This document shows positions 46,301 through 49,300 of a stretch of 64,000 nucleotides of DNA, one piece after another. The first letter of the stretch is position 1, and each line of letters begins with the position of its first letter. Made by a program: the position numbers. The stretch comes from an uncultured Verrucomicrobiae bacterium (GTDB taxonomy: Bacteria; Verrucomicrobiota; Verrucomicrobiia; Chthoniobacterales; UBA10450), in NCBI GenBank assembly GCA_963815455.1, contig CAWFGO010000003.1, positions 576,001 through 640,000 on the forward strand, read 5' to 3'.

Positions 46301-49300
46301 AAGTGAAGTTGAGAGTCCTTAGTTGAGAGTTGAGAGACAAAACAAACCCAGGAGCGAATATGTTTAACTTCGAAAAACTCGATGTTTGGCAAAAAGCGAT
46401 CGAATTCGCTGACCTTGTTTACAATCATACTAAGACGTTCCCGCCAGAGGAGCGATTTGGCTTAACCAATCAGCTTCGACGGGCTGCGATCTCCATCTCA
46501 TCAAATATCGCGGAAGGTTCATCACGAAGTTCTAAAGCGGATTTCTCACGCTTCATTGAAATCGCGACAGGCTCCGTATTCGAAGTCACGTCGCAAGCCT
46601 TCATAGCACAACGGCAGGAGTTTCTAAACGACACTAGCTTTCAACAGATTTACAACGGTGCGGAAGAACTCAGTCGAATGCGGAGCGGCCTACGCAAATC
46701 GCTCTTGACCGGTTAACTCGCGATGTGGCGCTTCCGACTCTCAACTCTCAACTCTCAACTATGAACTTTCGGCTGAAGATTTGGCGGCAGAAAAGTCGGC
46801 AGACGAAAGGCAAGCTCGTCGCCTACGACGCTCCCGACATTTCACCAAACGCTTCGGTTCTCGAAATGCTCGATATCGTTAACGAGCGGCTATTGCTCCG
46901 AGGCGAGGAGCCGATTGCGTTCGATTCGGATTGCCGCGAGGGAATTTGCGGCACGTGCAGTCTTTCCATCAACGGCGAGGCCCACGGCCCGGATCATCCC
47001 GGCGCGGCTTGCGAGCTTTACATGAGGCAATTTCGCGACGGCGCAAAGATCATCATTGAGCCGTTTCGAGTAAAGTCTTTCCCGGTTGTGAAGGATTTGG
47101 TTGTCGATCGAAGTGCGCTCGATCGGATTGTGCAGGCCGGCGGTTTCATTTCCGCGCGGGCCGGTTCCGCGCCGGAAGCGAATTCAATTCTCGTTCCCAA
47201 GCACGACTCCGATCTGGCCATGGAAGCAGCAGCCTGCATCGGTTGCGGCGCGTGCGCGGCGGCCTGCCCGAACGCTTCGGCCATGCTTTTCACCGCAGCG
47301 AAAGTTTCCCATCTTGCCCTTCTGCCGCAGGGAGGGCCGGAACGGGAAAGCCGGGCTGCGAAAATGGTGCGGGCGATGGACGCCGAAGGTTTCGGCAATT
47401 GCACGAATACCTATGAATGCGAAGCCGTTTGCCCGGCCGAGATCAGCGTCAGTTTCATCGCCAGGCTCAATCGGGAATACGCGCGGTCAAATTTTCGCAG
47501 AAGCGTGGGCGAGTAGGCTGGGGAGCGCAGGCTGCTAGCCTGCAGTTGCCGGCAGCTTGCCGGCAACATTTGGAGACAGAGATAGCAAAAACACGCAGGG
47601 CGAGATCCGTACCCAGTGATGCATCTCGGCAAGCTGCCGAGATGGACAGGCTGGCAGCCTGTGCTCCCCAGAATCAGATCGTTTCACACCCGCAGGTCCA
47701 CAATTCCGGGTCGAGCTCGGCCTTTGCGCGCCTGGCTACACCATCGACATCTGCTTTTGACCGCATCACGGCAAACATGGTCGATCCCGAGCCGGACATC
47801 AATGCCGCGCCAACTTCCGGTTGCTTGAGCAACCACATCTTCATTTGGGCGAGAAAAACAAATTTCTCGAAGACTGGACGTTCCAGATCGTTCACGAAAA
47901 TGTGATTCGAGAATTCTTGCGGTCCGTAATTCATTTCCGGAATCTCCTGCGAATTCTGCCAGCGTTCATAGGCCCATGCGGTCGGGACGCCAAATTCGGG
48001 CTTCAACAACAGGATCGACAATCGCTCGGGCAGTTTTATCGGCGTGACCAGTTCTCCGCGTCCTTTGCAGATCGCCGCCGATTGAAAAATGAAAAATGAA
48101 ACGTCTGAGCCGATCGATTCGGCCATTTTAGCAAGCGCTTCGCGCGGCAGTTTCGTTTCGAACAATTCGTCGAGCGCGATTAACGTCGAAGCTGCATCAC
48201 TGCTTCCCCCGCCCAGACCCGCGCCATGCGGAATTTTCTTTTTGAGTTTGATTGAAATGCCGCCTTTACGCTTTCGTTGATTCAAAGAAAGTCTTTGCCG
48301 CGCGCACCACCAAATTGTCGTCGCCATGTCGGGACACCGAGGATCATCGCATTGGAAATCGATCCATCCTCGATCTGTTTCTCGATCTCGATCTCATCGG
48401 AGAGCGAAATCGGCGTGATAAGTGTTTCAATCTCATGAAAGCCATCGCTGCGACTGCCCAGGACGCTCAGGGAAAGATTGATTTTCGCGGGAGCGAAGAC
48501 GCTTGCATATTGTCATGTCGAGCGAAGTCGAGAAATCCCGTGTTGCCAGTTAAAGTGACGCAGCGGGATTTCTCGACTTTGCTCGGAATGACAACTGACA
48601 AAATCATCGTCGCGCTGGACGTCGCGACAAAAAAGGAAGCGCTCGGCCTGGTAGAGCAATTGGGCGCCAAATTTCCTTTTTCAAGATCGGTCTCCAACTT
48701 TACACAGCGGAAGGTCCCGGGAATCGTGCACGCGCCGTTCGAGATGCAGGCGCGAGAGTTTTCCTCGATCTTAAGCTGCACGACATCCCAAATACAGTTG
48801 CGGGCGCCGATCGAATCTGCGGCACCCTGGATGTGCAGATGCTGACCATTCATTTGATCGGTGGAAGCGAAATGATTCGGGCCGCAGCGGGTGCACGATC
48901 AAGGCGACTGTCTTTGCTTGGCGTCACCGTTTTAACGAGCATGGATGGCGACGACACTCGCGAAGCTGGCGTTCCCGACAAGATCGACAATCAGGTATTG
49001 CGTTTGGCAAAACTCGGGATGGAAAACGGAATCGACGGTATTGTGACAAGCCCGACACGAAATCAAGATGCTCCGCGCAGAATTTGGCGGACAAGATCAA
49101 GATTGTAGTGCCCGGGAATTCGGCCGAGCTGGTCGAAACCAGGCGATCAAAAGCGCGCCATGACTCCGCGCGAAGCACTCGAGGCCGGAGCGGATTATCT
49201 TGTGATCGGCCGGCCAATCACGGCGCATGCGAATCCGCCCGAAGCAGTGGCGAAGATCATCAAAGAGATGGAGTAAGAGATTTCTTCGCTTCGCTCGGAA

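Follow-up and report, generated by a model that had tools for sequence, protein, structure and literature searches.

Between sdhA and sdhB, the window analysed here (a stretch of 64,000 nt, numbered from its first base) carries a 454-nt element at 46307-46760, which is built around a gene for a four-helix-bundle (4HB) protein and lies exactly between the sdhA stop codon (TGA, 46304-46306) and the sdhB start codon (ATG at 46761). The left arm (46307-46336, forward strand) consists of AGTTGAG units, the second of which is degenerate, and its first base directly follows the sdhA stop. The 4HB gene (46360-46716, forward strand) encodes 118 aa, and beyond it lies the right arm (46737-46760, forward strand), whose CTCAACT units are the reverse complement of those in the left arm and whose last base directly precedes the sdhB ATG. 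The two arms are 81% complementary over 31 nt and are paired in the predicted RNA fold of the element (z -3.0). The RTGA overlap of stop and start codons, which is single in relatives with an empty junction, is present here in two copies, GTGA with the sdhA stop (46303-46306, forward strand) and ATGA with the sdhB start (46761-46764, forward strand). The host flanks are a C-terminal piece of sdhA (45926-46306, forward strand; this assembly splits the gene near 45860) and sdhB (46761-47516, forward strand). An earlier note on this DNA had placed the locus at 46307..46774; the architecture is as described there, whereas the end given reaches 14 nt into sdhB.

In profile searches, the product matches PF05635 (E 5e-38) and TIGR02436 (E 4e-35) with an HMM score above the cut-off, and its closest named homologs belong to Chthoniobacterales and other Verrucomicrobiota. 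A phage collection contained no match to the protein, and Rfam gave no rRNA match in 43000-48000, where the sole match was a sub-threshold miRNA on the hairpin after sdhB. The predicted structure (pLDDT 97.9) matches the folds of Xcc0516 (Z 21.3), BT_0352 (Z 16.6), and the DGR protein Avd (Z 14.9; rmsd 2.0 over 112 residues, at 4-7% identity), all above unrelated bundles. Five chains per entry are found in each of the two PDB sequence matches, and by analogy the window protein may form an Avd-like pentamer. Even divergent subfamilies retain the residues Q38, R41, S45, N49, E52, and E75 with little or no variation, and these could represent a candidate binding or catalytic site. The ORF is under purifying selection, with a median dN/dS of 0.14 (13 unsaturated pairs of 190 among full sdhA-sdhB copies). 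No catalytic homolog, including a clear nuclease, stood out in the fold searches, an absence that excludes nothing. For a reverse transcriptase, no PF00078 (RVT_1) match was found in this genome (90% complete) and none beside the 4HB gene, so the analogy with Avd comes without a polymerase partner.

The window harbors further members of the family. A second element occupies the sdhC-sdhA junction (43868-44366, forward strand), with TTCGAAA/TCCGAAA-type arms and a frameshifted 4HB gene at about 43938-44297. Solo arrays, which have no inverted partner, are present at 5845-5878 and, in a short form, at 12405-12423, both on the forward strand and of the window element's class (GTTGAGR), as well as at 51825-51855 (TTCGAAA class, forward strand); two adjoining solo arrays of differing classes, TTTCGAT and TTCGTCA, lie at 58536-58618 (forward strand). 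The nuoK-nuoL junction holds an ORF-less hairpin with the ends of a GxxExxY element (36886-36966), which belongs to a sister system with units of about 9 nt. The names of sdhA, sdhB, and the other searched genes were checked by search, and those of atpD/C, nuoK/L, gap, pgk, cysD/N, alaS, and groEL come from the translations as read or from the earlier note.

Inverted arms and their repeat units

The 20 TIGR02436 matches in this genome correspond to 19 4HB loci, one fewer than previously counted, and the three GxxExxY matches to two loci, as had been stated. Nearly every one of these loci has its own repeat unit. An inverted-arm score of at least 13 was reached at 18 of the 21 family loci compared with 7 of 600 size-matched control genes; the family windows were placed by hand after the flanks had been viewed, which introduces some bias toward the family, and the control genes are crude gene calls made in this analysis. 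In the reversed-sequence control, no family locus and none of the 600 control genes reached this score. Among homologs of the window protein, arms were found at 70 of 78 scored loci (80 were fetched, two of them with flanks too short to score), compared with 2 of 78 in the reversed control. The claim of inverted arms beyond chance is upheld by both sets, as is the homolog test behind it, except for its complement control: 42 of the 78 homolog loci pass that control, which is invalid for the AGTTGAG class, as rotating the reverse complement of AGTTGAG yields its complement. Ten plasmid loci, hand-picked from 35 matches and hosted by Nostoc, Trichormus, Calothrix, Pseudanabaena, Leptolyngbya, Gemmatirosa, and Azospirillum, showed clear inverted arms in eight cases, an ambiguous pair in one, and a single arm in one; the 4HB genes of Nostoc and Calothrix are flanked by heptamer arms.

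Period 7 is the most frequent among tandem arrays genome-wide, with 163 arrays; period 6 has 68, period 8 has 33, and period 9 has 63. Every gene-sized arm pair found in this genome (about 400-600 nt) is at a 4HB locus, and no other enzyme was found between such pairs. Arm pairs 600-2500 nt apart were considered as larger elements and rejected, as they resemble chance neighbours, namely two separate arrays around host genes. The miniature, ORF-less copies have ends typical of their class, which recur in full copies elsewhere, and one mini, at C1:526905 in the same genome, has an arm layout identical to that of the left arm in the window. In soil DNA contigs (four small-share runs of one study), which extend about 30 letters to each side and are too short for the insertion site to be placed, the same two arms are joined without an ORF, with about 19-28 nt between them.

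The repeat unit follows the protein subfamily. In the window subfamily, TCAACYH is kept at at least 10 different sites in Verrucomicrobiota (neighbour clustering), homologs from Planctomycetota have units mainly of the TCGACTC/TTGACTC type, and the 6-nt and 8-nt classes recur beside the same protein clades in several genomes, the period being subfamily-specific. The unit of the nearest protein neighbour lay within two changes in 47 of 71 query rows (98 loci with a match, 89 armed loci kept), compared with 10.3 after shuffling (maximum 22), a test that is inflated by kinship among genomes and in which some nearest-neighbour pairs are orthologous sites and hence not independent. The earlier statement that arm sequence tracks protein subfamily is in line with these results, and such tight coupling points to the 4HB protein as a putative cognate factor of the repeats rather than passive cargo.

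GxxExxY, a member of the PD-(D/E)XK nuclease family (PF13366), had been described as cargo of the same heptamer-armed element. Among 30 GxxExxY loci, 27 were scored and 22 are armed, and in all 22 the arms have a period of 8-10 nt. Minis with these ends are present in this genome, including the one at nuoK-nuoL. The two genes are not interchangeable cargo of one element, and GxxExxY constitutes a parallel system of the same layout with its own 8-10-nt arms and minis. By analogy, a nuclease that has its own repeats supports the view that the 4HB protein may likewise be the cognate factor of its own.

These observations also bear on the possibility that a separate enzyme acting in trans, either an HUH/RAYT transposase or the GxxExxY nuclease, moves the arms while the 4HB protein rides along or protects them. 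We consider this improbable, given that the unit follows the 4HB subfamily, that none of the ten Y1_Tnp loci checked has a heptamer array nearby, that GxxExxY has arms of its own, and that the gene-sized arm pairs are all at 4HB loci; nevertheless, Y1_Tnp has 16 matches in the genome, of which about four are strong, the junctions are shared with REP hairpins, and the 4HB protein has no recognised catalytic fold.

The arrays also co-occur with 4HB genes across genomes. TCAAC arrays were found in 48 of 110 genomes with 4HB compared with 4 of 41 without (rho 0.49), a test subject to the same inflation by kinship. The three highest TCAAC counts among 151 genomes belong to G012, G108, and G000 (this genome), all carriers of the window subfamily, and the fourth carrier, G144, ranks 11. 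Of the DNA sampled for period-7 arrays, 400 kb came from four 4HB-free genomes and yielded 1 array, and 362 kb came from four 4HB-rich genomes and yielded 9; one of the latter genomes (G017) had none in the 62 kb sampled. These counts too are subject to inflation by kinship. A class seen in protein loops is sometimes without its cognate 4HB gene in the genome concerned: G173 (87% complete) has TCCGCAA and TCAACCA loops, with neither class among its three 4HB matches.

Occupied and empty junctions among relatives

Thirty loci were compared at each of two junctions. At sdhA-sdhB, six are full, one holds a stack of truncated copies, eight are empty with a 4-nt RTGA overlap of stop and start, and eight contain other REP-type hairpins, the remainder being one mini of another heptamer, four short spacers, one other gene, and one unscored locus. 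At atpD-atpC, three full copies, three minis of an 8-mer class, one REP, and three solo remnants were found besides 18 short or empty and two unclassified loci, and among the full copies the 4HB gene occurs both ways round within the same arms. The coexistence of full, miniature, and empty states at one junction and the inversion of the gene at atpD-atpC, both reported before, were recovered here. The counts include loci L129, L131, L215, L225, L320, L324, L359, and L364 from the unpublished genomes G153, G158, and G165, on which the conclusions do not depend.

Unrelated REP hairpins occupy the sdhA-sdhB junction with the same RTGA duplication as the 4HB element, so the choice of junction reflects tolerance rather than targeting. 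The RTGA repeat is forced by the gene overlap and common to unrelated hairpins, and it is no evidence of target duplication. Target-site duplications of at least 4 nt were present in 9 of 52 elements and 28 of 156 controls, with no excess.

Full, empty, and REP junctions alternate on the host tree for sdhA-sdhB, where several sister pairs with 96-98% SH-aLRT support combine different states; this is a quick tree that, like the others used here, is built from short proteins and has many open forks, and 16 of its full rows came from searching with the 4HB protein. Across 20 full sdhA-sdhB copies, 4HB distance follows sdhB distance (Mantel rho 0.59); the 4HB gene largely co-diverges with sdhB, indicating that the window copy is an old resident and that movement is slow or old. 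Repeated loss or replacement fits the sdhA-sdhB pattern as well as gain does. The 19 4HB loci of this genome have a patchy distribution among relatives and include broken copies. What stands of the mobile-element family proposed earlier is the variety of states at orthologous junctions; mobility itself we infer, and the sdhA-sdhB copy is old. The host genus contains one other genome only, so junctions are not comparable at strain level.

Solo arrays and arrays inside genes

The solo array is the commonest form of the family, above full and mini elements: 110 of 169 well-scoring heptamer arrays in this genome have no inverted partner, and many of these abut starts or stops. Array length peaks at four units (95 of 169), short arrays being under-detected, and the units combine a fixed, position-specific core of 4-5 nt with about two variable bases. 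A neighbour of a different class lies within 200 nt of 25 of the 169 arrays, compared with 3 expected, although 4-6 of the 25 are the two arms of a mini. Called genes contain 26 of the 169 arrays, including gcvP, acnA, pyrC, pdxA, ispG, trmD, and thiC, in some cases in frame; a few of these 26 are probably chance repeats.

The fixed core and the many solo arrays next to starts or stops would also be expected if the 4HB protein were an RNA-binding translational regulator of its own gene that acts via the arms, with solo arrays as selected sites near start codons. A regulon-type idea has been raised for TAACTGA repeats in the part of PMC4679880 consulted, and Avd binds RNA according to the consulted part of bioRxiv 2023.10.23.563531. 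However, such a host regulon is an unlikely account: 26 arrays sit within called genes, relatives differ in the class found at a given site, the 4HB gene is found in either orientation between its arms, and the 19 loci are patchy and partly broken.

Arrays inside genes vary in two ways. In trmD, an insertion into an empty loop is seen, with 16 residues between the anchors in two relatives compared with 30-36 in three. In pyrC (26 of 30 loci anchored), a period-7 score of at least 9 is reached by 13 loops, all of them 15 aa long, yet they fall into five classes, the fifth of which is seen in G165 only. In acnA (29 of 30 loci anchored), the 15 loops with arrays (score at least 11) fall into four classes, with 12 of the 15 loops at 15 aa; short loop forms of 7 and 11 aa also exist. 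For gcvP, orthologs were not anchorable in three of five loci. The pyrC and acnA classes are scattered over the host trees, which here are quick trees of short proteins with many open forks. A 7-nt slip breaks the frame and a 21-nt slip leaves neighbour units unhomogenised, and we therefore infer replacement from a shared repertoire; plain in-frame slippage would not readily explain a change of class at the same length in these loops.

Slippage has a wider form as well, in which the polymerase makes heptamer arrays anywhere and the link with 4HB is incidental. The over-representation of heptamers has been attributed to slippage, as cited in the part of PMC4692102 consulted, and long homogeneous arrays do exist (L338). 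On the present sequences this by-product reading appears largely refuted and deserves very little credence: the units belong to a common repertoire that is linked to protein subfamilies, the arms are inverted and end at defined points, slipping by 7 nt would shift the reading frame of pyrC or acnA, and few arrays occur where no 4HB was found.

Known systems and a proposed mechanism

DDE insertion sequences and MITEs have terminal inverted repeats and internally deleted miniature copies, and both features are present in the 4HB family, which differs from them in having no transposase between the arms and no target-site duplication above the control. DGR retrohoming overwrites a stretch at unchanged length. 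The DGR protein Avd (4DWL, 8UB7) shares the 4HB fold, and it forms a pentamer in which an RNA stem-loop is contacted by all five protomers (bioRxiv 2023.10.23.563531, in the part consulted). Unlike DGRs, the 4HB elements have no reverse transcriptase, their protein shares only the few percent identity with Avd given above, and their variable positions are not limited to adenines; adenine-specific, DGR-type variation was not seen in the arrays, where the core adenines are invariant.

The closest parallel in working is provided by REPtrons/TIRtrons, which consist of a RAYT with its REP/BIME repeats. In the part of PMC3733652 consulted, these have a gene between inverted repeats, protein variants that are repeat-specific, and many gene-less copies between genes, some of them in frame inside genes; the lack of target duplication above chance in the test of 4HB elements is a further likeness. 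Dispersed gene-less cognate repeats specific to a protein variant, as in a REPtron, are likewise present in the 4HB family. However, the RAYT is TnpA-REP, a Y1 HUH transposase, whereas the protein here is the all-helical PF05635, and REPs are GTAG/CGTC-tagged palindromes, whereas the arms here are tandem 6-8-nt units. In addition, most copies of the 4HB family are single arrays without a hairpin, and class is replaced at constant length.

The 23S rRNA intervening sequences with an S23/IVP ORF resemble the element in their PF05635 protein, terminal inverted stem, and patchy distribution (PMC4990558, in part). In the Coxiella sequence described there, tandem heptamers precede the S23 ORF, the terminal stem measures 28 bp, and RNase III cuts at the first repeat; the heptamers are noted just as strain variation in one element. 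With these heptamers and the idea, cited alongside, that the S23 ORF formerly had a role in mobility, this source comes nearest to the link proposed here. In contrast, the window element lies between sdhA and sdhB and not in an rRNA helix, there are 19 loci of the operon-junction type in the genome, and arm mismatches show no RNA-pairing bias. On the features tested, the 4HB family is REPtron-like in its working and is a member of neither the REPtrons, the IS/MITEs, the DGRs, nor the rRNA intervening sequences. In a comparison with free-standing homing endonucleases, the fold searches brought out no nuclease for the 4HB protein, and a nuclease fold is present in the product of the sister GxxExxY gene (PF13366).

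The Coxiella example and the paired fold of the window element would also suit an intervening sequence in mRNA, whose arms would form a stem in the transcript for RNase III to cut, rendering it harmless, and which spreads by homologous recombination of conserved flanks. Such pairing does not show in the gene-strand mismatches, where G-U and A-C numbered 77:69, 32:57, 27:34, 17:17, and 31:38, with no excess of G-U, and 19:9 in the plasmid set (p 0.09). Solo arrays, in-frame arrays, and new sites are left unexplained as well, and this account has a small share of our belief.

Heptamer repeats have been published for Nostoc (GGGGA(C/T)T) and Xanthomonas (GGGAATC) in PMC4692102, for Beggiatoaceae (TAACTGA) in PMC4679880, and for the Nostoc trnL P6b stem (Class I/II) in PMC4476775. 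In the parts of these sources consulted, they resemble the arrays described here in lying before start codons, in forming inverted pairs, and in class replacement at one site; for the trnL P6b stem, a repeated swap of heptamer classes is reported with an origin stated as unknown. The passages searched name no cognate gene for these heptamers: PMC4692102 has no match for 'helix bundle', 'S23', or 'xcc0516' and PMC4679880 none for 'S23', 'intervening', or 'nuclease', in each case in the text apart from the supplementary gene lists. The literature searched, which includes few subscription papers and is represented by parts of PMC4990558, PMC5524665, PMC4692102, PMC6182149, PMC3733652, PMC4679880, PMC4476775, and bioRxiv 2023.10.23.563531, contained no link between the PF05635 family and heptamer arms or a dispersed element. 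The family is wider than first described, and the present results suggest that a mobile element lies behind the long-unexplained heptamer repeats of many bacteria.

Collectively, the interpretation that we favour, at a probability of roughly 55%, is that the 4HB protein serves as cognate factor to a mobile repeat family. This would be a selfish family that resembles a REPtron in construction and encodes an unrelated protein. In its full form, a pair of inverted arrays, each of about four 6-8-nt units, encloses the 4HB gene, and its ORF-less hairpins and solo arrays would be dependent forms of the full element. An Avd-like 4HB pentamer may bind its own array with about one unit per protomer, probably on single-stranded DNA, and may promote copying together with a host polymerase or repair step and without a staggered cut. 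The cassette, the hairpin, or a single array could then be copied to a new site or over an older array, and selection would retain only the harmless products, at stop/start junctions and in surface loops. Empty alleles may be ancestral or may result from deletion between the two RTGA copies, and the protein-coding 23S rRNA intervening sequences could be copies that landed in an rRNA helix. The architecture, the coupling of unit to protein, and the turnover of classes are observed, whereas recognition of the array by the 4HB protein and copying with host proteins are proposed, and a chemistry of copying and overwriting carried out by the 4HB system is a tentative part of the proposal, with the odds rather against it.

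In its boldest and equally doubtful form, the 4HB ring might be a sequence-specific repeat writer that, with a host polymerase, lays down about four of its own 6-8-nt units and, within housekeeping genes as well, overwrites the arrays of other subfamilies where they stand. Competition for the same sites would then involve thousands of subfamilies, and the system could be the source of bacterial heptamer repeats, of the Nostoc trnL intron switches, of protein-coding rRNA intervening sequences, and, by domestication, of the DGR Avd. If true, repeat writing would represent a categorically new system. The proposed link joins three open questions, namely the function of PF05635, the origin of heptamer repeats, and the presence of ORFs in some rRNA intervening sequences. 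Same-length class replacement in pyrC and acnA offers a route to protein-loop change beyond ordinary slippage. As each 4HB gene is flanked by its predicted ligand, binding and mobility tests can be designed from sequence, and a protein-to-repeat code across subfamilies, if true, would constitute a natural library of sequence-specific binders. The PF05635 family is large, with 22,427 clusters at 50% identity matching the window protein at E<=0.001.

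TCAAC arrays across genomes

When the array pattern of the TCAAC class, the repeat class of the window's four-helix-bundle subfamily, was counted across 151 genomes, G012 gave 290 matches, six times as many as the next genome. This genome carries the window subfamily, and its high count possibly reflects a recent burst; G012 is well suited to junction analysis. TCAAC arrays also occur in two genomes, 92-93% complete, that gave no TIGR02436 match (5 matches in G124 and 9 in G143).

The sdhA-sdhB region

The sdhA-sdhB junction of G162 (locus L124) holds a 1194-nt stack, in which four pieces, each a left arm with a 5'-fragment, are followed by one whole gene and then by two pieces made up of a 3'-fragment and a right arm. 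The left-arm pieces alternate between two gene variants. The junction would have been invaded or duplicated more than once, or else mixed strains were assembled together. In the window, a long REP-type hairpin with GGGAGCGCA ends lies directly 3' of sdhB (47518-47671), and in G163 and G173 REP-type hairpins with the same ends occupy the sdhA-sdhB junction itself. The window's sdhA is in two frames, split at 45860-45926, and several four-helix-bundle and GxxExxY genes of the study genome, G000, carry frameshifts; indels introduced by sequencing, and not genuine breaks, may account for them.

Other elements and in-frame arrays

Four four-helix-bundle elements of different classes lie inside 10 kb of G000 (C5:1000-12500), in what reads like a surface-polysaccharide region, where one gene (C5:2471-2709) contains in-frame arrays of several classes, successive ones grading into each other in phase. 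Four RHS-core-like genes of G000 (C3:220265, C3:544032, C3:545724 and C5:253272) share a GTCAC-class in-frame array at an identical position. Two longer four-helix-bundle genes with a C-terminal extension (G000 C2:636003 and C1:1594879) have weak arms with a period of about 9 nt, not heptamers. At nuoK-nuoL (G000 C1:134350-134900), a diverged second copy of the upstream gene's last ~50 nt lies 3' of the GxxExxY element, which looks as though the element had brought part of the allele of a relative along with it. On a Pseudanabaena plasmid (NZ_CP112875.1), a four-helix-bundle gene is flanked by cas6 and cas4, and each side of it carries very long arrays of AAAAGCT/AAAAGCC, mostly in direct orientation.
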